Shown here piece after piece: positions 19,172 to 36,761 of a DNA stretch of 64,000 bases. The DNA is from a bacterium. Lineage in GTDB: Bacteria; Patescibacteriota; Saccharimonadia; UBA4664. The notes beneath the pieces are model-generated. The model searched no databases and had not been told where the DNA came from. It worked only from the letters and a program-made list of their open reading frames with translations. The stretch lies in contig CP064960.1 of NCBI GenBank assembly GCA_016699105.1, positions 1,074,715 to 1,138,714 on the forward strand, written 5' to 3'. Position numbers and translations under genes: made by a program. Each line of letters starts with the position of its first letter. The stretch's first letter is position 1.

Positions 19172-19214
19172 GAACCTGGTTATATTACAAGAAATAGGCG
19201 TAAAATGCCATAAT

Positions 19215-19952: not shown

Positions 19953-21695
19953 GAGCTCGAGCGCCGCGCCCCGATAACGACGTAGTCTTGTGGCTTTATA
20001 CCTAATGACTGAATGCGTTCAGCTTTATCATCAATGTTCTTTATTTGAGCTTCAATTGCAAAGCGCAGATTTGGGAAAATATTTTTCGAACCAATGAGAT
20101 CAATGAGGCCGTAACGCTTGAATAGGGCGCGTAACCGAGGGGCAGCATGGGCGAGGCAGAATTGTATGTCATCAGCGTCCAATTGATTAATCAACCGAAT
20201 GAGCGTTTGGGCGGCAGTGTAATCTACATCAGTAATGGCGCTGGCATCTAAGATGAAGACTCGCACTGGCTGCTTAGTTGAAGCTACCAGCTTGGACACG
20301 CGCTCAAGGAAATACCCGGAGTTCTCAAAGAAGATGGCATCATTGAAGCGGTAGGCCAAGACGCCAGCTGGAGCAGCCACCGGATTCTTGCCTTTAGAGA
20401 ATCGATCGGCAGCCCACTCAGCATATTCCTGATCGCGTAATAAGATATCATCATGAGGATGATACTGCCGACGCAACCGCTCGACTAACGATAGGAGCAC
20501 AGCCAGCATGACGCCTTTTTGAACACCCAGCAATGCAACGGCAATCAGTGCTGCCATGGCGATCGCAAATTCACTTCGACGCATAGCCCAGATATCTCTA
20601 AGTTCAGAAATTTTTACTAAATGCAGACCAATAGTAAACACAATGGCCGCCAACGAAGCCTGGGGGACGTACGCAAATAAACCGGTAGCTACCACCAACA
20701 CCAAGCCAATCAGGAGTGACATGATAACATTTACAAGCTGAGAGCGACCACCTGCCAATTCGCCGGCTGAAGTCCGGGGTGGGCTGCCATTAATCGCAAA
20801 GCCGGGAACTAACGCTGACGTAGCGTTAGCCATACCTAAGGCCATCAAATCCGGATTGTCGTTCACCTTTTCGTCGTGGCGGGCAGCCGAACTGCGGATG
20901 ACGGCCAAACTCTGTGCCAAAATGACGACGGCAATCGAGAAGGCCGTGGGCAGGAGTGTCACCATGAGGCCTAGGGTAATGTTTGGCCACATCAAGGCCG
21001 GCAATCCTGGTGGCACCGCACCAATGACTTCGATACCTAGGTGATGCAGATCAAATACTTTGGTGGCAACAATAGCACCGACCAAAGCGATCAAGGCACC
21101 GGGTAGTTATATTTCCACCCGAATACCACAACGGCGACAACGGCGGCGGCAAGCCCGGCAGTGAGCCATTCGATGTGCGCCAGATGCGTCGCTACAAACA
21201 GGAACTTGTCAACGATGCTGCCATGAGCATGCTGACCCAACATTTCCGGCAATTTACCTATTAGTAATTGCACGCCAACGCCAGATATAAAACCGATCAG
21301 GACTGGCCGTGAAATTAAATCTGCCATAAATCCAAAACCGAGCCGCCGACATCCCCAGTAAGACCAGCGCAGTCGTGATACCGAGTACAGCGATGGCGTT
21401 GGCATACTCAGTCGTCCCAGCAGCTGCTATGGTAGCACCACCAGCAGCCACTAATGCAGCCGTTGCGGAATCTGCACCCACTACAAGCCGCCGAGATGAC
21501 GAAGGCTGCAAATACAATGGGAGCAAGCAGAGCACAATACAAGCCAGTCTGCACGGGTAAGCCGACAATGACTGCAAAACCCAGTGATTCTGGAATAGCA
21601 ATAGCCGTTACTACCATTGCCGCCATCAGATCTGATTTCAGCCAGCGTCGCTGGTAGCCCCGTAGATTTGGAAAGATGAATTTGGATAAGACCAT
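19949..21695 (-). CDS. SulP-family anion transporter with C-terminal STAS domain, split into 3 ORFs
   Basis: ORFs 21408..21695 and 21091..21405 carry the N-terminal TM region. 19949..21094 carries the TM half and a STAS domain (VFILDASAITDVDYTAAQTLIRLINQL). Confidence 0.65.
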
Positions 21696-21870
21696 TACGG
21701 TATTTCACTATACCCTATCTATTTACTGTTGTCACTACCTTCTAGTTAGAATTGACTAAATTAACTGGAATAATATTACTGAGGCGCATTAGAGCTTTGT
21801 CGCTGAATAACCGCATAAGCACTGATCGAAAACCTCACGCATTTTATGCGAGTAGGTGTAATATAGTTTT

Positions 21871-22608
21871 ATGGCGTATACGTTTACATACCGCTTTGTT
21901 GACCACGATCGAATTACTGGAGAAGAGTCTCCGTCGTATGTCTTGCGCGTGCGCGACCTGCCGCTCGAACATAAACCTCGCGAGAAACTGAAAGCAGCCG
22001 GCCCGAGTGCCTTGAGTATGGCTGAATTGGTCGCCATTATTTGGAACGTTGGTAATAAAAACGAAGACGTAATTGCAATGGCTCAACGCGTTATTCGTGA
22101 GTATGGCGGCCAAGCGATGGCGCATGAAACAAATCCTCAGAATTTGAGTGAACTCTTAGCAATTCCATACACCAAAGCCTGCCAGCTAGTGGCTTGTATG
22201 GAGCTAGGTCGGCGCCAATTTGCTACAGCAAGAGGGTTACCAATTTATATTCGCAATGCAAAAAATGCCTACGACCATTTGTCGTCCATCGCCCAGAGTC
22301 CCAAAGAACAGTTGCGTGGGCTATATCTCAACAGCCGCTATGAAGTAATACATCAGGAAATTATTTCAATTGGTAGTTTAACGGCGAGCATTGTTCACCC
22401 ACGCGAAGTTTTTGCGCCGGCTATAGCATATGGAGCAGTCGGTGTTATAGTTGCGCACAATCATCCTTCTGGCGATGCCACGCCCACTGCAGAAGATATC
22501 GAAATTACTCATCAGTTACGGGCCGCCGGTACTCTTCTCGGCATAGATTTGGTCGACCATTTAATAATTACGAATACAAGTCATACGAGTATTGTTACCC
22601 AATTATAG
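21871..22608 (+). CDS. radC: RadC-family JAB/MPN domain protein
   Basis: The JAMM motif HNHPSGDATPTAED is present, along with an N-terminal HhH-like region. Confidence 0.8.
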   Translation: MAYTFTYRFVDHDRITGEESPSYVLRVRDLPLEHKPREKLKAAGPSALSMAELVAIIWNVGNKNEDVIAMAQRVIREYGGQAMAHETNPQNLSELLAIPYTKACQLVACMELGRRQFATARGLPIYIRNAKNAYDHLSSIAQSPKEQLRGLYLNSRYEVIHQEIISIGSLTASIVHPREVFAPAIAYGAVGVIVAHNHPSGDATPTAEDIEITHQLRAAGTLLGIDLVDHLIITNTSHTSIVTQL

Positions 22609-22702
22609 GTAAATTGAAGTATGCAAGCTCGATTCTAAATATTCTCGGTATTGTTCCTAATCAATTAACCAAAGCTACGGAGCTTAGCTACCCAGGATCA
22701 CG

Positions 22703-23092
22703 ATGCCACGGCCGCTGAAAAACTTTGTGATTCGTTATATTATAAACAATAATAAAAAGGTCAAAATTATGCTGGTTTGGCGTGGCTGGGGAATCCTAGC
22801 AATTCTTATTCCGTTTGGCTGCATAGTCATATTAGAACTGATGGTTGGCAAACCGACCTATCAAAGTAGTCCCTGGTACCCGACGAGTGGGCTCATGGTG
22901 GGGGCGGTCATTGTGTATCTGGTTGGTAGCTGGTTCGACAAACGCTCAATCAGCCGTTCCCGCGAAGTTATTGATACCAAGACCGGCGAAAAGTTTACCT
23001 TATCGCATCGGAATCAATTCTTTTTCATCGATATGAAATGGTGGTCGATTATTGTGGCTGTGTTTGCCATTATATTCTTCATTAGTAATTGA
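22703..23092 (+). CDS. Small membrane protein
   Basis: 129 aa with 3 hydrophobic segments. Confidence 0.4.
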   Translation: MPRPLKNFVIRYIINNNKKVKIMLVWRGWGILAILIPFGCIVILELMVGKPTYQSSPWYPTSGLMVGAVIVYLVGSWFDKRSISRSREVIDTKTGEKFTLSHRNQFFFIDMKWWSIIVAVFAIIFFISN

Positions 23093-23380
23093 TCATATTG
23101 ATCGAGAATTAGCTACTCCCCAAGGTCAACTCAACGCAGCTACCAGTATGAGTACGAAGACCGCTGCCAACAGTACGGCAACTCCCAGCATGATGAATTT
23201 GCGCTGTTTTACGCAGATCGAAATGAGCGGGAAGAACATTGCAATAACGAAGAAGCTTGTGCTTGCCCAGTAAGTGATGTAGAACTTGGATTCGAACAGA
23301 GCGATACCTGACTCTGTTGAGCAGTATATAACCGGAATTTGCTATGTGTTGGGGGGATAGGTGATTTTTCAGGCCGCAAG

Positions 23381-23902
23381 CTATATGTGGCAGGTTATTT
23401 GGTTTACCCGGAGGTTCCTGAGTCGAATACTTACATCAATGATATTGTCTTGGTTGTTGCCAGTGTAGAGCTGTCGGATTTGTATATTGGCGGTGGTGGC
23501 GTCACTTGAGGATATAGCATAGCGCAGCGGTTGGTCACTGCCACCCTGGGTGCAAAGTACAGGGTCAAAAGCCTTCTGGCTGAAGAGCGTGCCGATATAG
23601 TCATCGGCCAGATATGGCTTCGCCACTGCCTCGCTCGAATTCTTAGAGTAGGCTGTATAGAATTCTTGTACCTTCGTTAGTGCTTGAGCGGCAGTGTATG
23701 ACATGGATGGAGTTGCCGTCGGGGTTGGGGTCAGTGCAGCATTCACGGCAGAAGCGATGGGCGTTGCCGTGCTGGTAGGAGTGGGACGGACGGACAGACG
23801 GGCACGGGTAGTATAAGCAAGTACACCGGCGCCGATTGCTATTGCAACGAGTACGATGATGATAATGAGGCCAAAGCCGCGTTCTTGATGTGATGTAGAC
23901 AT
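23381..23902 (-). CDS. Secreted/membrane-anchored hypothetical protein
   Basis: An N-terminal TM segment FGLIIIIVLVAIAIGAGVLAY is present. It is the last gene of the ECF sigma operon. Confidence 0.4.
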   Translation of the reverse strand: MSTSHQERGFGLIIIIVLVAIAIGAGVLAYTTRARLSVRPTPTSTATPIASAVNAALTPTPTATPSMSYTAAQALTKVQEFYTAYSKNSSEAVAKPYLADDYIGTLFSQKAFDPVLCTQGGSDQPLRYAISSSDATTANIQIRQLYTGNNQDNIIDVSIRLRNLRVNQITCHI

Positions 23903-23932
23903 GAAACTCTCCTTTTATTTAATTTGGGACGG

Positions 23933-24586
23933 TTAATATTTATAGGGAATCTGGCCGAGCTCCCAAGGAGCAGACAGAGCCAATTGTAGGGAACGAATCT
24001 GAGACCGAAAAGTTAATATATCGCCTTTGGCGCTGAGGGTCTGGGCCTCAGCTCTGGTAGCCGGAACATCCGGATCAACACCGTAGACAGTGCGGACATC
24101 GAGCGCATCAGTCTTCTGCCAGAATTCCACGCGCAGATGGTCACTTATTCCTATTTTGAGGTTTTTGTCGACCGCCTGACCTGAACCCGAGTATATACCC
24201 GACTCATTCAACACACTAATCCAGTTACTAATCACGAAGGTCCACAATTGTCCAGAACTGGTCCGGACCTGGACTTCCCTGTCGTCGAGCTTGATGATGC
24301 TGCCATATACCTCACGAATGATCGCGCCAGCAGGGATGTCGTTCTCAGGTGGCAGGTATGAGCCGAAGTCATAGATCGCCGGGAGTACAGGACAGAAATC
24401 ATCGATGTTATTAAAGCACAGGCCGTCAGGGCGGCGCAAAGCATGGCCCACGCTCACTTGGGTTGCCGCTTGCACGTCGGGCAGCGTATAGGTGGGCTTG
24501 GCAATATATGCGGCTGTTATACCATTCGTGCTCGGTGCCACCAAAATGAAGTCACCCGGTCGGAGTTCCAGTCGCGGCACCGGCAT
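23933..24586 (-). CDS. Hypothetical protein
   Basis: 217-aa ORF, co-oriented within the sigma/anti-sigma operon. Confidence 0.4.
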   Translation of the reverse strand: MPVPRLELRPGDFILVAPSTNGITAAYIAKPTYTLPDVQAATQVSVGHALRRPDGLCFNNIDDFCPVLPAIYDFGSYLPPENDIPAGAIIREVYGSIIKLDDREVQVRTSSGQLWTFVISNWISVLNESGIYSGSGQAVDKNLKIGISDHLRVEFWQKTDALDVRTVYGVDPDVPATRAEAQTLSAKGDILTFRSQIRSLQLALSAPWELGQIPYKY

Positions 24587-24672
24587 CAGGCCGATATATT
24601 GAACGGTGGCTGCGTCAATGACGAGTTCGTTGGGAGAGATTGGATCGCCGCTACCCAGATACCATTCAAATT

Positions 24673-25356
24673 TTATGCTAGTATTTGTGTAACTAACGAC
24701 CCGACAGGCGCAGGAGTTTGGCCTCCGTCAGCGCCGCGCTGTACAGGCAGGGTGTTTGTTATTTTGTTTAAGTTTGTCATCTCTGCCTGTGCCCGAATTT
24801 GAGTATCGGTGAGCCCAGCTGGAAATTCAAAGGTTTGGCCTTCAATAACGGTTTCTTGCTTGCCGATACTATTGATTATCCGCTCGAGCTGCATAAAGGC
24901 CGGGCCTGGTTCGGGACTAGAGGTAACAGCGGCGTAAGCTCCGGCCGATACACTAAGGCTGCCGATCACTAGAGCGCCGGCCAAAGTCGCAGGTCGCACC
25001 ACCCTAGCCCTCCGAGTCAGCCATGTTTGTCCAACCGCCAGCGCGATCACGCTTGCAAAAGCTGCGACGGCCATCCAGGGCACAGTTTCGCCGAGGGCTT
25101 GTATAAATATTGGCAGGTGCTGGCGTACAGTGGCCCATTGCTGCCAGCCAAGCTGCACCACGCGCACGCTTGAACTACGGGTCAGTGCTATAATGAGCGT
25201 AATTAAGGCTACTATCACCAGGAACCACAGAGCTCGCCGGATCATCCGCGCCCGGCGCTTGGCGGTAGTAATCTGGGAGAGCACGGGCTGCACCAGTGAC
25301 CGGCGAGGTACAAGCTGCGGCTCGAGGCGATCCAAAATGTTAGTTAATGATTCCAT
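24673..25356 (-). CDS. Putative membrane anti-sigma factor
   Basis: It overlaps the ECF sigma gene end and has a single TM segment ALWFLVIVALITLIIAL after a short cytoplasmic N-terminus. Confidence 0.4.
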   Translation of the reverse strand: MESLTNILDRLEPQLVPRRSLVQPVLSQITTAKRRARMIRRALWFLVIVALITLIIALTRSSSVRVVQLGWQQWATVRQHLPIFIQALGETVPWMAVAAFASVIALAVGQTWLTRRARVVRPATLAGALVIGSLSVSAGAYAAVTSSPEPGPAFMQLERIINSIGKQETVIEGQTFEFPAGLTDTQIRAQAEMTNLNKITNTLPVQRGADGGQTPAPVGSLVTQILA

Positions 25357-25876
25357 GACACGTCTCTTTCAATTGCTGCCGGGCTCTATACAGCCATGAC
25401 TTTACGGTTGATTCAGGTATGCCCATTACGGCGGCAATGGCTACATACGGTTGGTGATCCCAATAATGCAAGTGGATAACACTGCGATAGTGCTCCGGCA
25501 GCTGATCCACCGCCCAGCGTACCTGTGCCTCGCGCGCTTCTCGATCGAGGGTCTGCGTATGATCGTTGTCGGCTTGCAGCTCGAGCTGGCCGTCCAGAGG
25601 TAGTGGAGTAGCCAGCCGGATGTGGTTAAGAGCTAGATTGCGGGCAATCCGGTACAACCAGGTGGAGAACCGAAACGAAGGGTCGTAGTTCGACAACTGA
25701 TTGTAAGCTCGAATGAAGGCCTCTTGGGCGATGTCTTCGGCTTGGTCAGCGTCGTGCGTGATGGTAAAACAAAAGCGAATCAAACCCCACTGATGTTGCT
25801 CAATCAGTATGCCATAGGCGGCATCATCACCGCTTAATACGAGCTGGATGGTGGTTTGTTCGTCCATTGGTTTCAT
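25340..25876 (-). CDS. ECF-type sigma-70 family RNA polymerase sigma factor
   Basis: A region-2 block FIRAYNQLSNYDPSFRFSTWLYRIARN and a region-4 block VIHLHYWDHQPYVAIAAVMGIPESTVKSWLYRARQQL are present. Confidence 0.8.
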   Translation of the reverse strand: MKPMDEQTTIQLVLSGDDAAYGILIEQHQWGLIRFCFTITHDADQAEDIAQEAFIRAYNQLSNYDPSFRFSTWLYRIARNLALNHIRLATPLPLDGQLELQADNDHTQTLDREAREAQVRWAVDQLPEHYRSVIHLHYWDHQPYVAIAAVMGIPESTVKSWLYRARQQLKETCHGIIN

Positions 25877-25919
25877 AAGTTATACCCATGATAGGGAAGA
25901 AAGTTGCACAACAGATCAA

Positions 25920-25956
25920 CTTTGCCGTTGGTAGTCAATGAATACCAACGGCAAAG
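25920..25956. promoter_or_regulatory. Perfect 14-bp inverted repeat with 9-bp spacer
   Basis: The sequence is ctttgccgttggta-gtcaatgaa-taccaacggcaaag. It lies between the decayed toxin copy and the ECF sigma gene start, and no T-tract follows it. Confidence 0.35.
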
Positions 25957-25989
25957 TTGCGCCAATGCGAAGTTAAGTGGCACCATATT

Positions 25990-26290
25990 TTGGACAGTTT
26001 GATAATGATGCATAATAAGCTGGTTAATATACCTGGTTATGAGAACCAATTTCGAGAAACTCGTAATGCTTATTTGTCTCGCGATACACCACCCGCAGAT
26101 CGCCGCCTCTTGAGAACGCACGAAGACCCTTTATCGTTCCGACTAGAGGGCGGTCATCCAGCGGTTAATCGCGCACGCCATCAATAAAAATTGGAGGCGA
26201 AGTGCAAACTGGTCTTTCAGCTTGGGATTGGGTGAAATGCGACTATGAAAATTCTTAACGAATTTCTTGTGTCGAATGATAGGCTTCGGG
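25990..26290 (-). pseudogene. Decayed RelE/YafQ-family toxin gene copy
   Basis: The DNA is about 70% similar to 40536..40802. Translation gives IIRHKKFVKNFHSRISPNPKL...GGDLRVVYRETNKHYEFLEIGSHNQVY with a lost start, a frameshift and an internal stop (gattaaccg versus gattacccg). An att-like motif copy follows at 25957..25996. Confidence 0.5.
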
Positions 26291-26397
26291 GCTTAGCACG
26301 ACGGACTTGCCGTGAGAATCAAGCGTATGAGCAGCCGGATCCATGCAACAGATCATTCCTGGTGCCGAGAGAGATGTGAGGTTCGGTGAGTCTCTAT

Positions 26398-27368
26398 TTA
26401 ACGCATTAAACGCCTATCGGATATATGTTTATTTATCAAAATTTTCAGCACTAAGCTCTTTTTCTTTATCCAATCAAAGTCTTTATCAACACCGATGTAC
26501 GCGACATCAACAGCACCGCCTACACCAGGCAAATCACCCGGATCCATTTGGATACCATCCGAGAAACGCTGTATTGAAGTAGTGGTCTCGATGGCGAGTC
26601 GACTAAAGTCGATGGCATCCTGCACTGTCATGGCACCCCATTGGATCACATACTCCAACCCACTTAACTGAGCCTTTATTTGAGATTCGAAACCTCTTGT
26701 GCCGCCTTTTGTACAAAAGGCAGTGCCGAAATACGACCATCAACCCCAAGCACTATTCGAGAGACGACATCTGTTTGTCCAATCCAATCAGCTCCGTACT
26801 CCTTACCCTTTGTACTACTATCACGCATAAGTTCAATGGAGCCTGGCATACTAACATTGCATACCATGTGAGTACCGTCGTTATTGAAGCCAGCCACCAA
26901 GAAATATAGACCTTGAATGCCTGTAACCCCTGACTGTATCTCTCCGTTTGGATGCTTAAACTTAAAAACAACCTGCGCATTTACAATTTTGTGCTCAATA
27001 AGCTCCATACCGTTCTTTTTGAGGTTGGCCTCTATTTGCTGAGGTAATTGATGTAAGAGTTTCTTGTACTTAAACGTCTCCCCAAGAAACTCAACTAACT
27101 TTGTTGCTATTTGTTGAACGTTGAGCTTCTTTAGCTCATGTACCCGCTTAAATTCTTCAATGAATCTGCTAACAATCTTGGGTGTCCCGTTGTCATCCAG
27201 GAAAGCCAAGCCAGCCATTACAACGCCCACACGGTCAGTTAAGTTAAATACTTTCTGCGCTGAGTCAGAGCCAACCCTACCCATGCCTTTACGGTTAACA
27301 TACGATTGCCGACTATCGGCTGCCAGCACAATGCCGCCAGTGGTTGTAACCGCGATTCCTAAGCTCAT
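26398..27368 (-). CDS. Proteasome beta-type (Ntn-hydrolase, HslV/Anbu-like) protein, one frameshift near 26675
   Basis: The N-terminus GIAVTTTGGIVLAADSRQSY fits the Thr-nucleophile pattern T-x-x-GVVLAADTR. ORF 26398..26658 encodes DAIDFSRLAIETT...PGDLPGVGGAVDVAYIGVDKD, the typical C-terminal helix/strand. The second frame stays open upstream across the stop of the first ORF. Confidence 0.55.
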
Positions 27369-27973
27369 CTTAATCTCCTTATTAATATGATCATCAAGAC
27401 ACTGAACAAGATTGCAGCTACGACGCCACGCCCGAATATTACGACGATGGCGACGCTACAGACCGATAAGAAGACCAAGGGGTGGGTTGAGATTCCGCTT
27501 TCAGTGGATAATCTCGATGCTGTTCCCGAGTGCCCAAGTTCCGAAACTGCATTTTGTAGCAACCGGATAATGTCATCGGCGCCCGAGCCGGAGCGTGTAC
27601 CATTTGGTTGCCTTGGGTCGATCCAGGTCGCATAACCCGGGTCGGACCAAGTTGCTTGGGCGCTGGTTGGCGGAACAACTGTAGATGTGGCAAATTTGTT
27701 TGGCCACCGACCAACATCGCGCGGTGCCATTAATAGTCCAAGCTCAGTCAATGCTTTTGTCGTCAACTTAGTACAGCGAGAGATCTTTAAGCTGGGTTCA
27801 AGATAACCATTGGCCACAAGTGAGCGGAGCATGTCTATTACCGAGCGGTTCGAAGCTAGACTCTGGCCAGACACGATCATCGATAATGTTGGGCTTTCAC
27901 CATACCTTTGACGGAATTCGTGAAGAAACAGTAGTAAGCTGGCCTGCTTTTCCGGTAGTCTCGATCTGTTCAT
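27365..27973 (-). CDS. Membrane-anchored LexA-like winged-helix DNA-binding regulator
   Basis: KQASLLLFLHEFRQRYGESPTLSMIVSGQSLASNRSVIDMLRSLVANGYLE resembles the LexA N-terminal DNA-binding domain. A C-terminal TM segment is present. Translation probably starts at MNRSR, because the ORF's 5' extension runs into the repeat array. A 4-bp overlap with the downstream Ntn-hydrolase gene suggests an operon. Confidence 0.45.
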   Translation of the reverse strand: MNRSRLPEKQASLLLFLHEFRQRYGESPTLSMIVSGQSLASNRSVIDMLRSLVANGYLEPSLKISRCTKLTTKALTELGLLMAPRDVGRWPNKFATSTVVPPTSAQATWSDPGYATWIDPRQPNGTRSGSGADDIIRLLQNAVSELGHSGTASRLSTESGISTHPLVFLSVCSVAIVVIFGRGVVAAILFSVLMIILIRRLR

Positions 27974-28024
27974 ATTCTGAGTATAACATATCAGTCCACA
28001 CCAATTGGTGTGAATTATTATTTT

Positions 28025-28460
28025 GGTGCGCGAGAGAGGAGTGTGTCTCGGCAAAGCCTCGCCACGCTTCGCCGGATTACCGGCTCGCCCGAACTAGCTT
28101 TTCTATTGTGCCGGTTCGACCCGTTCGTTACATACCAAAGCAAAACTCCCCTGGCGGGGAGATTTGCTTTGGTGCGCGAGAGGAGTGTGTCTCGGCAAAG
28201 CCTCGCCACGCTTCGCCGGATTACCGGCTCGCCCGAACTAGCTTTTCTATTGTGCCGGTTCGACCCGTTCGTTACATACCAAAGCAAAACTCCCTGGCGG
28301 GGGAGGTTTGCTTTGGTGCGCGAGAGAAGAGTGTGTCTCGGCAAAGCCTCGCCACGCTTCGCCGGATTACCGGCTCGCCCGAACCAGCTTTTCTATTGTG
28401 TCGGTTCGACCCGTTCGTTACATACCAAAGCAAAACTCCCCTGGCGGGGAGGTTTGCTTT
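28025..28460. repeat. Tandem array of 3 units of ~145 bp, each a degenerate partial tRNA-Leu copy plus a terminator-like hairpin
   Basis: The units are 28025..28170, 28171..28314 and 28315..28460. Each begins (plus strand) with ggtgcgcgagagaggag, the reverse complement of the tRNA-Leu 3' acceptor/T-stem. Each contains the hairpin aaagcaaaactcccctggcggggagatttgcttt and a ggtat.cacg-like D-loop remnant. The units are more than 95% identical to each other. Confidence 0.8.
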
Positions 28461-28462
28461 AG

Positions 28463-28544
28463 TGCGCGAGAGAGGAGTCGAACCTCCACGCCTTGCGGCA
28501 CCTGCCCCTCAGACAGGCGTGTATACCATTTCACCACTCGCGCG
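28463..28544 (-). tRNA. tRNA-Leu (anticodon GAG), CCA not encoded
   Basis: The reverse complement folds as GCGCGAG-TG-GTGAAATGGTATACAC-G-CCTGT-CTGAGGG-GCAGG-TGCCGCAAGGCGT (long variable arm)-GGAGG-TTCGACT-CCTCT-CTCGCGC-A. Confidence 0.85.
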
Positions 28545-28600
28545 AATATGTAATTTTACCGGGTTATCGTACCATATGGACGCTTAAATTTAAACGGTCT

Positions 28601-28945
28601 TTATGATATGACCCAGGCAATGTAGAGGCAGCAGACACCCAGGAATAAGATGAGTGGCCACAAAAAGGCGACGTTAATGACATAATAGAGGTTACTGGGA
28701 GCGGTGAGGGCACCGGCTAGCCCTCGACGTTTGTGATAGGCTTTGAGGTACTCTTCCCAGATCTGCTTGCGATTTATTAGTACCAAGCACGAAGCTAATA
28801 CCGCAGTGGTGCCAAGTCCGGCTAGACCGAGTATGGGCTTGATTTGGACTACCACAGTAAACACGGTTAAAAGGAGGAGAAACAATGCGGGAGCAAACTG
28901 CGGTTCGGGCGATTTGTGATGAAGGAAGAGGCGTGATAAGACCAT
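28601..28945 (-). CDS. Small membrane protein
   Basis: 114 aa with 3 hydrophobic helices. Confidence 0.4.
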   Translation of the reverse strand: MVLSRLFLHHKSPEPQFAPALFLLLLTVFTVVVQIKPILGLAGLGTTAVLASCLVLINRKQIWEEYLKAYHKRRGLAGALTAPSNLYYVINVAFLWPLILFLGVCCLYIAWVIS

Positions 28946-28966
28946 GAGAATACCTTTCTTGTTTTA

Positions 28967-30588
28967 TTAGTGCAATGTTAGTTGATGATGATGGTGTCCG
29001 AATTGATAGTTGGAAAGTAAGAGTTTTTTTAACGATTCGAGAGTTGCGTGTGTTTTGTGGTCAGGGCTAAAAACGGTATATGGATCACAAATATCTTTTA
29101 CTTTGCCCATCAGATCAGCAAGCTCGTCACCATATATATCGGCTATTGCCCATCCATGCACCAATCCATCGCCCGCCGTACCACTAGGAGTACCGCCGAG
29201 TTTGGCGATTAGTTTAGTGTATTCCCGCATAAGAATAAGTAGCTTGTCGGTATCTTTCTTTTGGATAAATTTAAACGCGGTAAAAATTCAAATTGCCATC
29301 GCCAACATGACCCCAGATAGCTGCGGTTAGGTCGTGGCTACCCAATAGATGAGTGGTTTTAGTAAGCAATTCAGATAATTTTGCGGATGGAACCACTGCG
29401 CCTTCCATGAATGATATTGCCTGATTCGAACCCGGCGGTTCCAAATATTGAGCGGCGGCTGAGCGCAATTTCCACAGAGCTACCTGCTCCAGCGGATCAC
29501 GAGCAGTGCGAATCGTTGCGCCGTAGCGTTTGAGTATATTCTCGGCTCTCGTGGAGGCTACTCGTTGACCAAGCTGAGACATATTATCAAATTGGACCAG
29601 TAATGCCGTAGTAGGTTCATCGTTTGGCAATAATCCATCGAGAAATCCAGGATGACTTATAGAAACGGCTTCGAGAAGTCCCCTGTCAGCTAATTCGAGT
29701 GCAGACGGCTTGAGTTTCACAACACGACTGGCGGCCTCTAGCGCTTGTGCCGTTGCCGAGAAGTAACCGACTACTAATGTTGTACGTGGATTATACACAT
29801 ATGTGCTGAGAGTAATTTCTGTGATTATTCCGAGCGCACCTCCTGAACCGATAAAGAGCTGACCTAGATCAAACATATTACCGCGACGTACCCTTTTCAA
29901 GAGCGAAGCCCAAATTGTTGTAAGGCAATTTCGGAGTGGCGGCTCTGATCAACTCTTCATGATCGAGAAGTATATTGTCGATATCTCGATAGATTTGACC
30001 TTCAAGCGTGGTTAATCCTTTGCGGGCGCGTAGCTGTCGTGCTGTCAGTGGTTTGGTTTCGATAAGTGAGCCATCCGACAGTACTACTTTGAGTCCGCGT
30101 ACGTACTGACGGATCGATCCGTATTTAACTGCATGCAATCCTGGCGATTCTTCGGCAACGGCACCACCGATAGTGGTACCGTCAAGATTGAGCGGCAAGC
30201 ATGGAATGTGCCGTCCGTGAGACATGAGCGTTTGCTCAAGTGTCCGAAATGTGACACCTGACTGAACGGTGACTGTGCGTTTATCGAGTTTCAATATTTT
30301 GTTCATGTGAGCAGGTAGTACTATTTGGATTGCCGATGCAACTGCACCGCCACTTAGACCCATTCCGAGACCGCGAGCTATCACTGGAGTTGGATTAGTA
30401 GAAGAGATATGATCTGCCGCAAACTGAACCGTTTTACGAACATCAGCCGTATTTGCCGGGTACACGATTGCCATTGGTTCGGCAGTAACGATACTGTTAT
30501 CAGTAGCTAATTGGCGCAAAGCACCTGGCTGGTCGGTAGCCGCTCCGAGGAGGCGGGCTTGAAGCTCTCGCATGTAAGGCTTTCTCAT
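28967..30588 (-). pseudogene. FAD-linked oxidase (GlcD / D-lactate dehydrogenase-like), split into 3 ORFs
   Basis: 29878..30762 carries the FAD_binding_4-like domain (GLGMGLSGGAV...). 29271..29900 and 28967..29230 carry the C-terminal oxidase domain in two further frames. Confidence 0.65.
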
Positions 30589-30642
30589 ACTTCTATGATA
30601 CGGCGCGGCGCGGCGCCAATACAAGCCGCTTGTGCTACGATA

Positions 30643-31281
30643 ATGACTATGAATCAGCAGACAACATCCGCACTGGCAAATGCCCGGCAGAACGTAGAAG
30701 CTGATGCTTGCGATCAACGAGTAATGCCAGCATTTCGGACACGCTTGTTTGAGCCGCAACATTCAGTAGTTGGCGCTGTTCTCCTTTTGCCAGGTTACAC
30801 TTCACCGACGGATCAATTCGCTGATCTTGCTCAGATACTGGCGGATCGTGGCTACTATGCGTACATCCCACGTGCGCCGCGTCATGGAGTAGTTGACGGA
30901 CCACTAAGAATTGCGCCAACAGCCCCAGAGCTACAAGCGTATGCACGATCGGGTGCTGATATTGTTATGCGGCTATGTCCAGGTTCGAGTGGTGCGATTG
31001 GACTTAGTGGTGGAGCGGTTCTAGCTGCTTGGCTAACGGCTCAATCAGATATACAATTGAATCGACTTCTCCTTTTGAATCCATTTCTGGAACCGGCTCG
31101 TCGCCTCGTGCCGAAGTGGCGACTACATTTACTGCTTGCAATCTATGGTACACAGCGATGGCTGCCGGATAGACCCGATCCAACGCATGAGGCACGCACA
31201 TTTGCCGGACTCGCCAGCTACTTATTGCTTGCTCGATCGATCCCCGACAACTCTTACCTATACATATTGACGCCGCATTAA
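30643..31281 (+). CDS. Alpha/beta-hydrolase fold protein
   Basis: VLLLPGYTSP is followed by GLSGGAVLAAWL, a GxSxG-like nucleophile elbow. It is divergent from the oxidase gene. Confidence 0.5.
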   Translation: MTMNQQTTSALANARQNVEADACDQRVMPAFRTRLFEPQHSVVGAVLLLPGYTSPTDQFADLAQILADRGYYAYIPRAPRHGVVDGPLRIAPTAPELQAYARSGADIVMRLCPGSSGAIGLSGGAVLAAWLTAQSDIQLNRLLLLNPFLEPARRLVPKWRLHLLLAIYGTQRWLPDRPDPTHEARTFAGLASYLLLARSIPDNSYLYILTPH

Positions 31282-31440
31282 TAACTGCGCCTGGAGACGA
31301 TCAAGTTGATCTAGCTGTAGCGGCTCAGCGGTTTCAACAGTGGTTTCCTTCGGGTAGACACTATCAACTTCCTAGAGCTTGGAATCTTACTCATGATATC
31401 GCGGGGCGTTCAAGCCTAGAACCTTGGGCCGATACTGTCT

Positions 31441-32484
31441 ATGATGAATATGCTAATGTTTATTGTTGTCAATCAACAGGTTTTCAATTATGAAAAAATC
31501 CGACATTTCCTCAAGCCTAAACCCGTAAGATCTGGAATGACTGCAACATTTGTTATCACAGCTATGGTTAGCGGTGCTATCATCTACATGGCAACTCGTG
31601 CAGCTGATCAGTCTATTTCGGCTGAGGCAGAACTGGCTAGACTATCCGGAAGTGCCACCACAGTAAATGACGCCGGAGCCAGCGGAGGAAGAGCCGTTGT
31701 ATTCGGTAATCTTGCTACGCCACTACCAACTCCGACGCCAACACCAACACCGAGCACGTCAATTAGTCCACTACCATTTGGTTACGGGGCCGCCAACGGT
31801 CCAAATGGCACATGGAACCTCAAATTAAATGATAACTTCGACGGCAGTACTCTTGATACATCGATTTGGTCAACTGGTTGGCACGGATCAGGCATTACGC
31901 CCCCAAACCAGTCCCAAGAGCTAGCTTGCTATGACCCAAATCAAGTAGTGCTCGACAACGGTATCTTGCGCCTCAAGATTGACGTCAAGGCTACCAATTG
32001 TAATGGTACCCGGCCGTATATTTCAGGTGCTATTAATACCGAGAATAAGCGCGCCTATAGTTATGGGTACTTTGAGGCGCGCATCTGGTTGGACGCTAGT
32101 AGCAATGCCGTGTATAACTGGCCAGCCTGGTGGCTCAATGGTGACAGTTGGCCGACTACCGGCGAAGTAGATATCATGGAAGGATTAAGCGGTACAGCTC
32201 GCGCCAATTGGCATGGGCCTGAAGGCAATGGTGCTGGTTACGAGCTTGGAAATGGCGGAGTTATGGGCGGCTGGCATGTGTTTGCAGCTGAGTGGGCACC
32301 TGGTAAAATGGTGTCCTACTATGATGGTAAGTTGTTGGGATCATATTCGTCGAATAGTAATGTCACCTCGGCGCCGCAATACCTAATTCTTATGGCTCAG
32401 ATGAGCCCTCAAGATCGCTATGGTGGGCCAATCAAGGCACCAAGCGAAATGGATATTGATTATGTGCGAGTTTGGCAACGATAG
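31441..32484 (+). CDS. Secreted GH16-family glycoside hydrolase (beta-glucanase/laminarinase-like)
   Basis: The catalytic motif ExDxxE appears as GEVDIMEG. There is a signal-anchor and a PTPTPTPTPS linker. The probable start is near 31537 (MTATFVITAMV). Confidence 0.7.
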   Translation: MMNMLMFIVVNQQVFNYEKIRHFLKPKPVRSGMTATFVITAMVSGAIIYMATRAADQSISAEAELARLSGSATTVNDAGASGGRAVVFGNLATPLPTPTPTPTPSTSISPLPFGYGAANGPNGTWNLKLNDNFDGSTLDTSIWSTGWHGSGITPPNQSQELACYDPNQVVLDNGILRLKIDVKATNCNGTRPYISGAINTENKRAYSYGYFEARIWLDASSNAVYNWPAWWLNGDSWPTTGEVDIMEGLSGTARANWHGPEGNGAGYELGNGGVMGGWHVFAAEWAPGKMVSYYDGKLLGSYSSNSNVTSAPQYLILMAQMSPQDRYGGPIKAPSEMDIDYVRVWQR

Positions 32485-32514
32485 TTGACTGATGCCAGCC
32501 AGGGGTGCAGCTGA

Positions 32515-32600
32515 CCCAACCCTAACCCGCCTGGGCGCACGCAATACTCCCACCCGGGAATAACGTCATCAGGCGGGGTATTGGCATGGATTAAACCCAT
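32515..32600. repeat. ~86-bp dyad-containing element, copy 1 (copy 2 at 33808..33893)
   Basis: Copy 1 is cccaaccctaacccgcctgggcgcacgcaatactcccacccgggaataacgtcatcaggcggggtattggcatggattaaacccat and copy 2 is cccaaccctaaccccgcctggggcgcacgcaatactcccgcccgggaatacgtcatcaggcggggtatttgcgtgggttaacccat. An inverted repeat cccgcctgg/ccaggcggg brackets a cccggg core. Confidence 0.45.
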
Positions 32601-32948
32601 TTCGCTCAGAACCTAGCAATAATTATAATTTGGTGGTATAACCAGGCTATGGCGGTCCCATCCGGGCCGCTTGTTCCGATTCGTCCCAACAAAGGGGAAA
32701 CGCGTGACCGACGAGCGACCAACCTTAACAATCTCAACCATGACATCCGGACCCCATAAAGCCACCTACCTAGTAGCCACCAGCAACACCGAGCTATTTG
32801 ACCTATATGATCTGACAATGTCGGGGCTATGGGCGGAGCTTAATAAATACCCAGCTACTTGTGCGGCCGTCCGGTGTATTGAACTCTGCCGCGGTCGGGC
32901 GGAAATCAGCTGTGGCTTGAGTTTGATGCCGATGCCACCGAAGGCATT

Positions 32949-33776
32949 TTGGGTGACGCTGCGTCGGCGGTTCATCGCTGGGTCGATGACATAAAGCAAA
33001 GCCAGCTTCCGATCAAAGTTGTTCATGCCGACACGCCAGCAGCTGAACAGCTCAGCGGTTACTGGGTCATCACCTCATCCAGCCTGCTGCTTCGTCCAAG
33101 TGGCAGTGACGACAAACGCGGCTGGATTGAGCTCATCTATGTTGGGGCCGCCACGCAGCTGATCGAAGACCTGGTGATCCGGGCTGCCTGTGCAACCGGA
33201 ATGGTTCACACCGATCCTGACTCGGCGCCTCAGATCACGAATGGTGTGTTGGAGTATGGCCCCATCAGTCCGTATGCCATCGATCACGAAAGATTCGCTT
33301 TGCGTCTTCAAGCCGAGATCCGCACAACACTATCGTCGGGGTCGATCGTCGGCATCACCGTGGCTAGAGTAATCTGCCCGGTCGATACTGTCGACCAGAT
33401 CCCGCCGACCGTCACGCTGCTACATCAAGAGCAACGGGGCGATCACCGCGTGGTCGTGGGTGCTAACTTCCGGTTGACGGCCGGACTAAAACCAGATATG
33501 GCTTACAATCGTCCGGAGGCGCCCGGCATCTATCCACACAGCTGGCCGTATCTCGTCCAGCTCCTGTATCAGAAGATCTACGAAGCGGGCATATTCAATG
33601 TTGTTGAGCAGATTCGCGTCATCACAACTGAAACTGGTGCCGGTCAGCTCGTCTTCGTCGTCGATCCCTATGAACAGGATGGATATCAGGAAGCCTTAGG
33701 CCAGGCCGTTGCGCGAGCGGCCGTACTGTTCCTGGGTGACCGAGCCGTGGTCGATGTGGTAAGTCCGGTCTCATAA
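32949..33776 (+). CDS. Hypothetical protein (275 aa), possibly N-terminally extended by the frameshifted ORF 32671..32994
   Basis: The long ORF lies between the two copies of the dyad element. No recognisable domain was found. Confidence 0.4.
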   Translation: MGDAASAVHRWVDDIKQSQLPIKVVHADTPAAEQLSGYWVITSSSLLLRPSGSDDKRGWIELIYVGAATQLIEDLVIRAACATGMVHTDPDSAPQITNGVLEYGPISPYAIDHERFALRLQAEIRTTLSSGSIVGITVARVICPVDTVDQIPPTVTLLHQEQRGDHRVVVGANFRLTAGLKPDMAYNRPEAPGIYPHSWPYLVQLLYQKIYEAGIFNVVEQIRVITTETGAGQLVFVVDPYEQDGYQEALGQAVARAAVLFLGDRAVVDVVSPVS

Positions 33777-33899
33777 CGCTCCCACCCCCGCCGGACGTAC
33801 CCGCCAGCCCAACCCTAACCCCGCCTGGGGCGCACGCAATACTCCCGCCCGGGAATACGTCATCAGGCGGGGTATTTGCGTGGGTTAACCCATATCGCT

Positions 33900-36617
33900 A
33901 TGGCTCGGTTCAACGCGGTCTTGAACCAGCTGCTGCAGCCCAGCGAACTGGTTCTGTCTGCCGCCGAGAAAGCCTCACAGCACAGGCAGGCCTGGCAAAA
34001 GCAGTACCACTTCGAATATACGACAAAAATTTTATCAAGACCGCAAGATAAGTATGATAGTGTAAGACTTATGAGCGAGATGCCTGAGAATAATGAGCAG
34101 CAGATATTCGGCTCACTTGATCTGCAACCTGAGTTGTTAACTCACCATGTGCCACCTGAGACTGAGCCCTCAAACATTGCTCCGCAAGAAGCTATCACTC
34201 AGATAGACGCAGTCGGCCCTGATTCGGCCATTGACGCACACCAGCTCGTTGATTGGATAGTGGCGGCCGAGCATGCACCCGATTCGGACTTATCAATCCA
34301 GCTTGAGAAAATGCGATCCTGGCGTTCTCCCGGCGACCAATATCGCATCAACCAGCCGAATAAATTAGCGCTCGATGCTACTATCATTGGTTTGGTTGCA
34401 ACAAGGCATGCAAAACTCGCCGAGAAACTTATTTCATCGTCCCAGCAAGAACTCCAAAATTTGCGCTTTGCCACTAGTCTATACGCCGAGCGCAATGGAC
34501 TAGACGAGGCGGCCAAATTAGCGATCGAGAGAGAAATAAATTCAATTGTACAAAGAAACCGTACAGCATTACTCTCCAGAATGACTATCAGTTCTGCCCC
34601 CGAAGGTTTTGCTGCCGTTGTGGTCGATCGAGCGGCCAATCCTGATAGTGCCGGTGCGATCTCCGAAGCGCAATGGCAACTCATAGGCCAGCTTGGCTCT
34701 GAGGCGCAAGCTTCCCTTCTCGCGAGCAGCCGAATGGATCGGACAGCTTGCGGGATCCAAGACCTTGACACTCATGGCTTGCTCGGTGATATGCCGATTC
34801 TGATAGGCCGCATTGACCAACTTGATGATCGTGATCAAACCGAAGCTTATCTGACGGAATACGGGCAAGCCGTCGGCAAACTCGCCGAAATGCAGCAATC
34901 CGGCCAGGAGCTACGTCTGCCTATTATTAAGCGAGAACTAGCTCAGTTTGCGCAGCCGGATCAGGCATTGGCGGCCAGTGAAGCGATCTATGGCGATCTA
35001 CCGCTCGATGTTGCCACAAGCAAACTGGCCGACTTATTTCGTGATCCGGCTCATCAACAAGACCTGGTGCCGGTTGACCCTCAAATACTTGCACAACTAA
35101 CTATGGCTCGAGTTCGTTTTGACGATTTGGGTGTTTTGGATGATCTGCTTCCACCTCTTTTGGACCGCATTCGCGATTCTACAGATCAACCACAGTTGGT
35201 CGAGGATATACTGACGGCAGTGGCGGCGGCACAAGCGCTCAAGGGTGAGCGACTGTTATACTTGGATCCAGTTATCCAGACAGATCACCCCGCAGAATTG
35301 GCAGCTAGTCTAGCCAAAGTCACGGGTTTGGCCGAGCCAATGAATGATCCAACCCGCGCCGAGCTCCTTCGAGCTATTACCGATGCCCCCTCTGCTCCGC
35401 AAGCCGTAGATATGCTTCAGTCTTGCAGCCAAGCTCTAGCGTCGCGGAGCCTAAAATTTGATAGTGAGTCCGATATTACGATATCTGACATGCTGCGACA
35501 ACTCTCCCCAGTAGCCGAACAGGTGTCCGAGGCTGACCCGCAAGTGCGAGCCGACCGTTTGTCGCAAGCTGCCGAGCGAATTGCTAGTAACTACCTCGTA
35601 GCGCGGGAGATTACTGATATTTACAACAAGAATTATGGTGAAGCAATATCTCTCGCAAAGGGCAGGCGAGCCGTGTTGTCCGATTGTCCAGAAATCGCCC
35701 GCCGAATGGCAGATATTGGGTGCAGTGGAGACGATGCTAATCGAATGTTTTCGACCTGGTCGTATCACAGTGAATATGCAATGGCATCATATGCCCGTGC
35801 GCAACGAGGCGAGGGTAAGGTTACACTTAATATGCTACCCGCGTTAGTAAACCTACAGCGCCAGCATATCGAAAAAAATCTGCGGAGTTATGAGGACTAC
35901 GTAGCTCGGTTTGGATCCGAAGAGGCACGCGAGATTATGACAATGTTCAAGATTACCAACTTTGAGCATGTGGGAGTAGATTTACTACATGACCAATTGG
36001 AACGATGGCGCTCCGGCGAACGGCCAGTTGAAAATCTTATGATTGTTTCTCGTGCCGACTGGAACGGAGCGAACTCCAACGCCGGACAAGATACGCAGGA
36101 GGTTTTCAAAGACACAAACTTTTTTGTTTTTGAAGCGGGTAGTGCCCGAGATCTCGACGACATTCGCCGCGCGGTTAAGGATCGCGAATTAAGTCATGGT
36201 CGAGTTCCCAAAGAGGAGAATGCAGTGAAAAATGTTGTGATCCACGCGCATGCCAATCCAGATGGTATTCTCTTGGGGTTAGATGGAGAAGCCATTAATG
36301 TCGGTCAGTATCTTAAGTTGCAAAAGCTTCCAAACGCCCGTGCTCGCACGTACGAAGAGGAGCTCGGCTCTGCCTACCGCATTATTATCCAGGCATGTAG
36401 TACGAAAGGTGAAAATACTAGTCGTTTCCTGATTGGTGCAGACGGTAGACTCGTCCCAGGTCCAAATATTGCAGCTACAATCCATGAATATCACCAACGC
36501 ACCGTTGAGTCATCGCCTGTACCCACCGTAGGTAATATCGTCACAGACGAGAATGATAAGGTTTGGTTCGGCATCGCGGGAGGCTACTTAGAAAGCACGC
36601 CCTACGAAAAGGTGTAA
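33900..36617 (+). CDS. Large (~905 aa) protein with alpha-helical N-terminal region and predicted C-terminal caspase-like (clan CD, CHAT/C14-like) His-Cys peptidase domain
   Basis: Three C-terminal strands match the caspase-hemoglobinase fold: NLMIVSRADW (first strand plus Arg), NVVIHAHANPDGILLGLDG (His strand) and YRIIIQACSTKGE (QAC-type Cys strand). Their spacing is about 70 and 48 aa. No P-loop was found. The likely start is ATG 33900, immediately after dyad-element copy 2. Confidence 0.55.
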   Translation: MARFNAVLNQLLQPSELVLSAAEKASQHRQAWQKQYHFEYTTKILSRPQDKYDSVRLMSEMPENNEQQIFGSLDLQPELLTHHVPPETEPSNIAPQEAITQIDAVGPDSAIDAHQLVDWIVAAEHAPDSDLSIQLEKMRSWRSPGDQYRINQPNKLALDATIIGLVATRHAKLAEKLISSSQQELQNLRFATSLYAERNGLDEAAKLAIEREINSIVQRNRTALLSRMTISSAPEGFAAVVVDRAANPDSAGAISEAQWQLIGQLGSEAQASLLASSRMDRTACGIQDLDTHGLLGDMPILIGRIDQLDDRDQTEAYLTEYGQAVGKLAEMQQSGQELRLPIIKRELAQFAQPDQALAASEAIYGDLPLDVATSKLADLFRDPAHQQDLVPVDPQILAQLTMARVRFDDLGVLDDLLPPLLDRIRDSTDQPQLVEDILTAVAAAQALKGERLLYLDPVIQTDHPAELAASLAKVTGLAEPMNDPTRAELLRAITDAPSAPQAVDMLQSCSQALASRSLKFDSESDITISDMLRQLSPVAEQVSEADPQVRADRLSQAAERIASNYLVAREITDIYNKNYGEAISLAKGRRAVLSDCPEIARRMADIGCSGDDANRMFSTWSYHSEYAMASYARAQRGEGKVTLNMLPALVNLQRQHIEKNLRSYEDYVARFGSEEAREIMTMFKITNFEHVGVDLLHDQLERWRSGERPVENLMIVSRADWNGANSNAGQDTQEVFKDTNFFVFEAGSARDLDDIRRAVKDRELSHGRVPKEENAVKNVVIHAHANPDGILLGLDGEAINVGQYLKLQKLPNARARTYEEELGSAYRIIIQACSTKGENTSRFLIGADGRLVPGPNIAATIHEYHQRTVESSPVPTVGNIVTDENDKVWFGIAGGYLESTPYEKV

Positions 36618-36761
36618 ATCTTTCGTTTGAACGGTGTACCTAAAACACAAACGCCCGTTCGCTGCTGGTATCTGAACCCTCAATAGTTGAAACGATTTTG
36701 AGAGTGTGGACAGCACCGTTTTTGGCAGCCGGAACCTTGAGATTGGCTTCAAATTGTCCGG

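Follow-up and report, generated by a model that had tools for sequence, protein, structure and literature searches.

What are the units that stand in tandem directly behind a tRNA gene, each ending in a copy of the 3' end of that gene? The question is raised by the tRNA-Leu(GAG) gene in a 64,000-nucleotide stretch of a Saccharimonadia genome (contig CP064960.1, positions 1,074,715 to 1,138,714; hereafter the window), where a first-pass annotation had described three degenerate partial tRNA-Leu copies and had offered a tRNA-derived small RNA, an array of attachment (att) sites or a slippage product as possible explanations. Our results suggest that the units are probably non-coding modules without cargo, bounded by a short tRNA-derived core, that belong to a hotspot of accretion next to tRNA genes. 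Among the three explanations offered, the att array was the one borne out: the core lies at the boundaries of cassettes, breakpoints between strains fall on cores, and recombinase genes or their remnants abut the core.

The array itself is real. Tandem Repeats Finder placed it at 28022-28478, with a period of 146, 3.1 copies and 95% matches, and both ARAGORN and Rfam (RF00005, 51.5 bits) recognized the intact tRNA-Leu(GAG) that it adjoins. With unit limits phased from CCA to CCA, three units of 146, 144 and 146 bp lie head-to-tail directly 3' of this gene, all on the minus strand. We refer to them as copies of unit A, and the bit scores given here and below are those of R1, a covariance model made from 11 unit A copies.

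28462-28543, minus strand: tRNA-Leu(GAG)
28314-28459, minus strand: unit A copy 1 (146 nt; 173.5 bits), made up of a hairpin at 28425-28460 that is terminator-like in both directions, a structured body of ~93 nt and a copy of the tRNA-Leu 3' end, CTCTTCTCTCGCGCACCA
28170-28313, minus strand: unit A copy 2 (144 nt; 156.6 bits), with a 2-nt deletion in the CT tract of its tRNA-end copy
28024-28169, minus strand: unit A copy 3 (146 nt; 171 bits), with its tRNA-end copy intact

The general layout is a hairpin (AAAGCAAACCTCCCC-GCCA-GGGGAGTTTTGCTTT), a body of the length given for copy 1 and a tRNA-Leu 3' end copy (ACTCCTCTCTCGCGCACCA). The hairpin is G+C-rich, with a run of T after it and a run of A before it, as in an intrinsic bidirectional terminator, and terminator-like sites, counted by pattern match only on both strands, numbered 9 in 27800-28750 vs 1.0 expected. 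A 16-mer from the tRNA 3' end matched 9 times in the window (0.6 expected). The last 19 nt of the tRNA, which had been thought intact in every unit, are so in copy 3; copy 1 carries one mismatch, and copy 2 lacks the two nucleotides mentioned above. Similarly, the hairpin that follows the tRNA was said to follow each unit, and it does recur after copies 1 and 2, but copy 3 is followed by AAAATAATAATT, a different palindrome (CACACCAATTGGTGTG, 27997-28012) and a promoter-like site for a LexA-like open reading frame (ORF). At 28460-28462, where every other strain contig has the encoded CCA of tRNA-Leu(GAG), the window has CTA, which may be a true mutation or a read error.

Several simple identities for the unit were considered and set aside. 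On its reverse strand long ORFs cross the array, yet insertions and deletions (indels) of 1-2 nt shift the frame from one copy to the next, and the peptides show no conservation; the unit is therefore taken to be non-coding. The plus strand of each unit opens with TGG and 15 nt complementary to the tRNA-Leu 3' end, in the manner of a primer-binding site, and no reverse transcriptase lies nearby. Miniature inverted-repeat transposable elements do not describe it either, as the similarity between its inverted ends is weak and R1 copies occur in the window only at two tRNA-Leu loci. A blastn comparison of two units with phage and plasmid collections gave no match. In L021, a contig from a relative, the unit hairpin also occurs away from any tRNA (13290-13345), at the centre of a perfect 50-nt palindrome, GCATACCAAAGCAAATCTCCCC-GAAA-GGGGAGATTTGCTTTGGTATGC; the TGGTATG that opens the unit body may accordingly belong to an extended palindrome and not to a tRNA D-loop.

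If the units were degenerate tRNA-Leu pseudogenes left by tandem duplication of the gene, their 17-19 nt of 3' identity and their common hairpin would be accounted for. However, similarity to the tRNA in the sense orientation is limited to those last 17-19 nt, so that the term partial tRNA-Leu copies does not fit, and the reported remnants of a D-loop and a variable arm could not be substantiated: aligned locally to the sense tRNA with the last 19 nt removed, the unit bodies scored at chance (z = -0.8 to 0.3; 500 shuffles). ARAGORN called none of the units, nor did the Rfam tRNA model at E up to 10, and Rfam 15 returned nothing but tRNA in 26000-30500 (E up to 10) and in 40000-46300 (E up to 1). 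The sole additional tRNA-like stretch, GAGTCGAACC, resembles the T-loop region in inverted orientation (z = 3.1-3.8 in copies A4-A6 described below, 1.2 in the tandem copies). Furthermore, the same unit occurs at cassette boundaries far from any tRNA 5' half. Descent from duplicated tRNA genes is thus very improbable, while tandem amplification of an element that had already diverged is plausible.

The tRNA-derived sequence that recurs most widely is a 10-nt core, TCGCGCACCA, which comprises the acceptor end plus CCA. All of its 13 occurrences in the window are on the minus strand, and each lies in or 3' of one of two genes, tRNA-Leu(GAG) and tRNA-Leu(CAG). Such repeats of the tRNA 3' end, downstream of the gene and in its orientation, are those expected of a tRNA-gene (tDNA) island. 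At tRNA-Leu(CAG), each segment 3' of the gene opens directly after ...GCGCACCA and closes with GCGCACCA; since all segments run from core to core, the 146-bp unit behaves as one more cassette, without cargo. It was also found that a conserved 30-nt motif, GGTTCCAnCTAACGnCGCAnTCGCGCACCA, here called the P motif, terminates the protein-coding cassettes of the window and of contigs L009, L010, L021 and L036. The second locus is given here in its order on the minus strand.

45984-46069, minus strand: tRNA-Leu(CAG), identical to tRNA-Leu(GAG) at its 3' end; the dispersed array starts behind it
45820-45983, minus strand: unit B, 164 nt, homologous to unit A but with different hairpins (39.9 bits, E = 1e-8)
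44925-45819, minus strand: cassette 1, with ORF165 (45109-45606; no Pfam match); its end consists of a degenerate P motif and TTCGCGCACCA (44915-44924)
44766-44914, minus strand: unit A copy 4 (A4; 162.5 bits), between the P-like site at the end of cassette 1 and a recombinase remnant
44586-44765, plus strand: remnant of a recombinase 3' end (repeat D5), reading ...LLRTCNPLTKAEYFGVIFDKVPTYQEIVDGTKNTSLVPDINQIFQLAFLPNNS
43547-44518, plus strand: cargo of cassette 2, a homologue of the Shedu (SduA_C) defence nuclease (Pfam PF14082, E = 5.5e-14)
42890-43034, minus strand: unit A copy 5 (A5; 115.5 bits), hairpin and left core decayed, preceded by a degenerate P motif (42997-43034)
42268-42889, minus strand: cassette 3, with ORF177 (42307-42840), ending with the P motif AGTTCCAGCTAACGTCGCACTCGCGCACC (42269-42297)
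42123-42267, minus strand: unit A copy 6 (A6; 163.6 bits)
41193-42122, minus strand: cassette 4, with a C39-like peptidase (41278-42000), ending in a P motif (41194-41222) and core
40493-41192, minus strand: cassette 5, with an antitoxin and a YafQ/ParE-type toxin (40536-41083), ending in a P motif (40494-40522) and core
40343-40492, plus strand: second remnant of a recombinase 3' end (D5 copy), 92% identical over the stretch 40343-40502

Directly 3' of A6, between this unit and the body of cassette 4, 42063-42122 corresponds to the ancestral flank and terminator of tRNA-Leu(CAG), because the same flank directly follows tRNA-Leu(CAG) in L017. The unit hairpin recurs at 42233-42268 and 44880-44915. 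Element ends flank the units: P motifs abut the hairpin at positions 44915 and 42268 of the window and in L009, L010 and L021, and a recombinase remnant adjoins the core of A4. With its Shedu homologue and its YafQ/ParE-type toxin and antitoxin, the tRNA-Leu(CAG) island is in part a small defence island that varies between strains.

The remnants point to the class of recombinase that may have acted here. An element with a recombinase gene occupies the position immediately behind the CCA of tRNA-Val in L022 and L023; this 575-aa Resolvase-domain gene directly follows the CCA on the opposite strand, with a reading frame that ends inside the tRNA. The window sequence 44586-44758, which abuts the core of A4, is 88.5% identical to L022 19578-19750, the C-terminus of this 575-aa gene, and the boundary between remnant and core resembles an attL junction. 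The second remnant abuts a further core, and with the P motif there it forms what we term a P/P' junction (40494-40522/40343-40492) that is present also in another species (L036) and that looks like attP. Pfam domain PF00239 was found on the L022 gene and PF07508 and PF13408 on its homologues, the domain set of a large serine recombinase (LSR; Resolvase, Recombinase and zinc-ribbon) being present in relatives and not in the window. Homologues are widespread in Patescibacteria and often truncated. Two of them could be placed in context, one against the CCA of tRNA-Leu(GAG) (L033) and one against that of tRNA-Leu(TAG) (L032), with junctions of the form CACCA/ATGA... When the 59-aa remnant served as query, only other short remnants were recovered, and their loci in another species carry the P/P' junction and no unit.

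The P motif and the tRNA end are related in a manner that suggests LSR half-sites. The P motif GGTTCCAnCTAACGnCGCAnTCGCGCACCA resembles the terminal 25 nt of the tRNA, GGTTCGACTCCTCTCTCGCGCACCA, in having GGTTC and the 10-nt core in common. From the start of GGTTC to the end of the core, however, the distance is 30 nt in the P motif (3 copies) and 25 nt in the tRNA, as measured on the left half-sites. A previous study showed that the motif bound by the zinc-ribbon domain is shifted by 5 bp between attP and attB (PMC3783163). The outward shift of GGTTC by 5 bp is therefore the one expected between attB and attP, and for the left half-sites the outer motif does lie 5 bp further out in the element than in the host, as that rule states (PMC3783163). 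Dyad symmetry between left and right half-sites was not evident.

On the P side, the opposite strand encodes a conserved peptide that continues the recombinase ORF (VRECDVRWNHIETCILLMYQKLEALGF; ...VRQCDLTWNQIEPSILMMYQKLIELDF), and the gene therefore appears to span attP. It seems that integration truncates the recombinase gene, which gains a tRNA-encoded tail (..SLVRERGLEPP). A peptide of the form ..RWNxIExxxLxMYxKxxxLxF is in frame with the recombinase C-terminus at 41195-41410 and 40343-40530, both on the plus strand, and at L036 4040-4280.

Other recombination systems were considered at these junctions. A Xer/dif-like site was suggested by GGTGCGC, which resembles the XerC arm of E. coli dif, and was dropped in view of the serine recombinase genes at the junctions. 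An analogy with the bridge RNA of IS110 found no DEDD transposase near any unit; the one in L035 is unrelated.

Comparison of strains placed the breakpoints on the same repeats. Contigs of the same species were available from other samples or metagenome assemblies, relatedness being judged by a flanking substrate-binding protein, which assigns the window to Candidatus Saccharimonadia. In L011, where this protein is 99% identical, the tRNA-Leu(CAG) core is joined directly to cassette 1, with unit B absent, and the cassette-1 core is joined directly to cassette 5, without window 44915-41205, a block that spans cassettes 2-4 and holds three units (A4, A5 and A6), Shedu, ORF177 and the C39 peptidase. 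L022, from a different sample, has the identical cassette-1/cassette-5 junction. Moreover, L018 and L019, two contigs of one species, differ at tRNA-Val by a recombinase-bearing element. Presence/absence polymorphism with breakpoints at repeats was thus seen in L011 and L022 vs the window and in L018 vs L019 at tRNA-Val, and the repeats at the L011 and L022 breakpoints, of only 10-19 nt, are too short to collapse a k=141 assembly.

The number of units also varies at tRNA-Leu(GAG), where one unit was found in L022, L023 and L024, at least two mutually different units in L031, and three in the window. One might suspect that a single unit was expanded to three during assembly, and the three short-read contigs with one unit might seem to agree. 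Yet the copies differ from one another, including in length (144 vs 146 nt), and L031, from an independent sample, carries at least two units with base differences of their own. Six more contigs (L025-L030) end at the tRNA or at the first core. Of the 27 indels that separate the window from L022 across 19092-33886, 21 change the length of a homopolymer by a single nucleotide, most often as a loss on the window side. This pattern suggests that the window was probably assembled from long reads and retains some homopolymer errors. Tandem repeats are resolved by long reads, while assemblies from short reads collapse them or break there. The three-copy array is therefore credible, the one-copy short-read contigs are possibly collapsed, and an assembly artefact can be given hardly any weight as the source of the array. 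The same errors mean that apparent pseudogenes in the window are not to be trusted: ORFs split in the window and intact in L022 include an FAD oxidase (29271-30762), SulP (19949-21601) and a 474-aa L022 ORF (23933-25356). A VWA gene (36868-37691) and UvrA (51500-54402) are likewise split in the window.

L018 and L019 lack the unit and carry the hairpin as the native terminator of tRNA-Leu(GAG), with tRNA-Val 38 nt further on; in the single-unit strains, the sequence 3' of the unit differs from this native hairpin of L018. A search with the unit-core DNA pattern gave nine matches in genome contigs, one of them real (L009, Saccharimonadia) and eight due to chance in unrelated phyla, one real match in metagenome contigs (L010), and none in viral contigs. 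So few matches imply that the unit family is rare or too diverged for exact patterns.

We propose that, in this Saccharimonadia lineage, mobile cassettes insert immediately 3' of the CCA in tRNA-Leu (and tRNA-Val) genes, with the tRNA end as the B half-site and the 30-nt motif as the P half-site of an LSR. Judged from the sequences, crossover would take place within or at the end of the shared 10 nt, TCGCGCACCA. The unit boundary, a tRNA-end copy followed by the hairpin, would duplicate the native tRNA attB region between roughly -19 and +35, and a unit so bounded could be excised, re-inserted and duplicated between cores, providing extra docking sites. Three tandem copies might arise when cores recombine or, after a second copy had formed, through unequal crossing-over. 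If the recombinase gene spans attP, it would be split by integration, and P/P' junctions would be the expected leftovers of tandem accretion. The unit itself may act as a bidirectional terminator and insulator, or as an accessory recombination site.

Several points weigh against this proposal. No recombinase gene was found among the ~50 ORFs of the 64-kb window scanned with Pfam; the window holds only the two remnants, of ~170 nt each. As the tRNA-end copy in the unit has no GGTTC at -25, it would serve less well as attB than the tRNA gene itself. The first duplication of the 19-nt tRNA end is left unexplained by the recombinase model, and an identity block of this length with its start in the T-loop would sooner be expected of a tyrosine integrase. 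The compensatory hairpin changes described below are not what one expects of an inert scar, so that some function is missing from the account. In addition, the contigs with one unit are short-read assemblies that may be collapsed, and the polymorphism in unit number appears firm only as at least two vs three.

The 19-nt block leads to an alternative in which the units are scars of an older element that used a tyrosine integrase, with crossover in the T-loop. The 127 nt between cores would then be its fused arms after loss of the cargo, the block ACTCC...CCA would be the displaced 3' fragment of the tRNA, and serine-recombinase elements would merely share the hotspot. In known tDNA islands, the island restores the tRNA gene and the displaced fragment marks the end of the island (PMC4383910); because tRNA identity in the unit starts exactly after GGTTCG and runs to CCA, the alternative is a fair one to consider. 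It would also explain why A6 is followed by the native tRNA-Leu(CAG) flank, as expected for a displaced original 3' end, and it could draw on other partial tRNA fragments in the islands (45701-45722; L017 8290-8320). However, neither the window nor any locus retrieved for comparison yielded a tyrosine integrase or a remnant of one, the single-unit strains do not have the native hairpin, as in L018, after the unit, and the conserved structure and tandem copies are explained no better than by serine-recombinase accretion. We therefore consider a tyrosine-integrase scar rather improbable. The partial tRNA 3' fragments just named, the first of which is on the minus strand, suggest older integration events of another kind; GGGTTCGACTCCTCTTTTGGGC has 14 nt in common with the tRNA-Leu T arm and then diverges.

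The unit is conserved well beyond this species. Units are present in relatives with only ~60% identity in the flanking protein: L021 carries unit A behind tRNA-Leu(CAG), and in L034 unit B lies behind tRNA-Leu(CAG) and a mini-unit behind tRNA-Leu(GAG). Model R1 recovered unit B copies at E = 1e-8 to 1e-11, which establishes units A and B as homologous. The consensus fold consists of the terminator and then a four-way junction with helices P0, P1, P2 and P3. In P0 a purine-rich 5' stretch, within which lies the inverted T-loop copy GAGTCGAACC, pairs with the pyrimidine tract of the tRNA-end copy; in P1 GAACC pairs with GGTTC; and P2 has the form GCNNG-TAAT-CNNGC, with four compensatory variants (GCCGG/CCGGC, GCATG/CATGC, GCGCG/CGCGC and GCCTG/CAGGC). 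For unit A, 91.7% of cells pair vs 25-46% when the partners are slid, and nine pairs show double changes vs 4.2 +/- 1.4 in shuffles (reached in 1 of 500). Five of these nine covarying pairs sit in the terminator hairpin, and the covariation rests on ~7 independent lineages. Unit B has 11 covarying pairs among 3 species, including the copies of L012 and L034. Since three hairpins of the unit body keep their pairing through compensatory changes in relatives this diverged (~60%), the unit may act as a folded RNA or DNA. An acceptor-like stem (GGGCGAG with CTCGCGC) and a tRNA-sized fold with two arms were not adopted: a mismatch at position 2 persists, the stem competes with P0 and with an extension of P2, and the tRNA-Val analogue has no equivalent.

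These data might also mean that the unit serves mainly to encode a structured small RNA, a four-way junction whose 3' strand is the tRNA-Leu acceptor end with CCA, the acceptor copy pairing with an upstream, purine-rich inverted copy. Transcription of such an RNA, together with the tRNA or following it, would stop at the next hairpin; amplification of the gene would account for the tandem copies, and the position at cassette boundaries would be secondary. The four helices plus terminator, the covariation in unit A, P2 and unit B, the link between the two units through the covariance model, a terminator-like hairpin after every unit and the retention of a non-coding unit across such distant genomes are all as expected of an RNA gene. 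A pattern scan, on the other hand, found no promoter-like site inside the units, and a terminator-like hairpin separates the tRNA from each unit body. More than half of the unit A covariation is terminator pairing from few lineages, and template-switch correction of quasi-palindromes can mimic compensatory change without selection. On its own, the 108-nt body is no better folded than shuffled sequence (z = -0.45), and the unit matches no Rfam family. Finally, the 3' GCACCA decays where the unit is not beside a hairpin or element (L021, L034 and L009), which fits a role as a DNA site better than that of a selected RNA 3' end. Altogether, we regard a primary role as a small-RNA gene as unlikely.

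If the units are modules of an accretion hotspot, they may do more than mark it. A tentative extension, which we think doubtful, is that units A and B are portable, structured mimics of the tRNA-Leu 3' end which, together with the native hairpin, form an amplifiable extra attB for a family of LSR elements in which the recombinase gene itself spans attP. Selection for docking, or for a linked role as RNA or insulator, would explain the conservation of the hairpins across species. Were this so, the units would constitute an integron-like platform beside CPR (candidate phyla radiation) tRNA genes that captures and shuffles small cassettes, including defence genes.

Whether such units are confined to tRNA-Leu is addressed by tRNA-Val(TAC), which has an analogous downstream sequence.

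19002-19171, minus strand: tRNA-Val(TAC) (19095-19171) with a downstream unit-like stretch

Behind the tRNA come a hairpin analogous to that of the units, a spacer of ~55 nt, which has GAGYACCGCAGGRA in common with unit B, and then CTCATTCCCCAC (19004-19015), a degenerate repeat of the gene's own 3' end. The stretch resembles a counterpart, at tRNA-Val, of the tRNA-Leu units. The spacing between tRNA-Leu(GAG) and tRNA-Val is 38 nt in L018 and L019, 1.4 kb in L034 and ~9 kb in this species. The genes in 19172-28023 include a LexA-like gene, a proteasome-like gene, an ECF sigma factor, RadC, SulP and MGMT; an exact look-up of the proteasome-like protein gave no match. Because this region opens right after the core of the last unit, it may itself be an old insertion at the core. 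Beyond the array, 33887-36640 (~2.75 kb, with a 913-aa ORF at 33876-36617 that has no Pfam match) is absent from L022. Direct repeats of ~65 nt (32533-32597 and 33828-33891) lie near this segment, which is not bounded by the tRNA core.

Genomes of CPR bacteria, Saccharimonadia among them, are very small, and classical mobile elements are considered scarce in them. Here, two tRNA-Leu genes and a tRNA-Val gene within 64 kb act as insertion points, and cassettes with Shedu, toxin-antitoxin and peptidase genes vary within the species. To our knowledge, neither a serine recombinase that docks on the CCA end of a tRNA gene, nor a recombinase gene that spans its own attP, nor a small structured non-coding module that multiplies the docking core has been described. 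A module that functions as a landing pad or RNA would represent a compact device for gene capture, and it would be useful in practice because it would supply serine integrases with short att sites defined by tRNA ends. If it proves to be a scar and nothing more, the locus still provides a clear map of the turnover of accessory and defence genes in an uncultivated lineage.

Among known systems, the closest behaviour appears by analogy to be serial accretion at tRNA genes of the tycheposon type. Tycheposon islands of Prochlorococcus accrete serially at tRNAs and contain partial tRNA repeats, fragmented recombinases and cargo-only remnants (bioRxiv 10.1101/2020.12.28.424599). As in these and in Islander-type tDNA islands, newer elements next to the tRNA push older ones inward, leaving tandem junctions and heterogeneity between strains (10.1101/2020.12.28.424599; PMC4383910). 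Unlike those islands, whose tyrosine recombinases cross over inside the tRNA, the present locus probably involves an LSR and insertion at the encoded CCA end, and it has a CPR host and a repeated, structured 146-bp tandem unit without cargo. With regard to the class of enzyme, the nearest parallel is found in composite SCC (staphylococcal cassette chromosome) islands, in which LSRs stack cassettes at the 3' end of rlmH with direct repeats of the integration-site sequence between them, and in which pseudo-SCC elements have no recombinase (bioRxiv 10.1101/336396). The class of recombinase, the tandem cassettes at the 3' end of a conserved gene and the presence of cassettes without a recombinase are common to both systems, whereas here the target is the 3' end of a tRNA and not rlmH, the recombinase gene appears to span attP, and a non-coding 146-bp unit is repeated. 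With regard to the sites themselves, the outer motif lies 5 bp further out in the element site, as in the attP/attB model of the Listeria phage A118 type (PMC3783163). Finally, the locus resembles integrons in having ordered, promoter-poor cassettes, each ending in a structure-prone recombination site, beside a fixed platform. It is nevertheless not an integron, because no IntI or other tyrosine recombinase was found among the scanned ORFs, there is no attC with its R''-L''/L'-R' organisation, and cassettes occur in both orientations, with Shedu opposite; the platform here is instead a tRNA gene.

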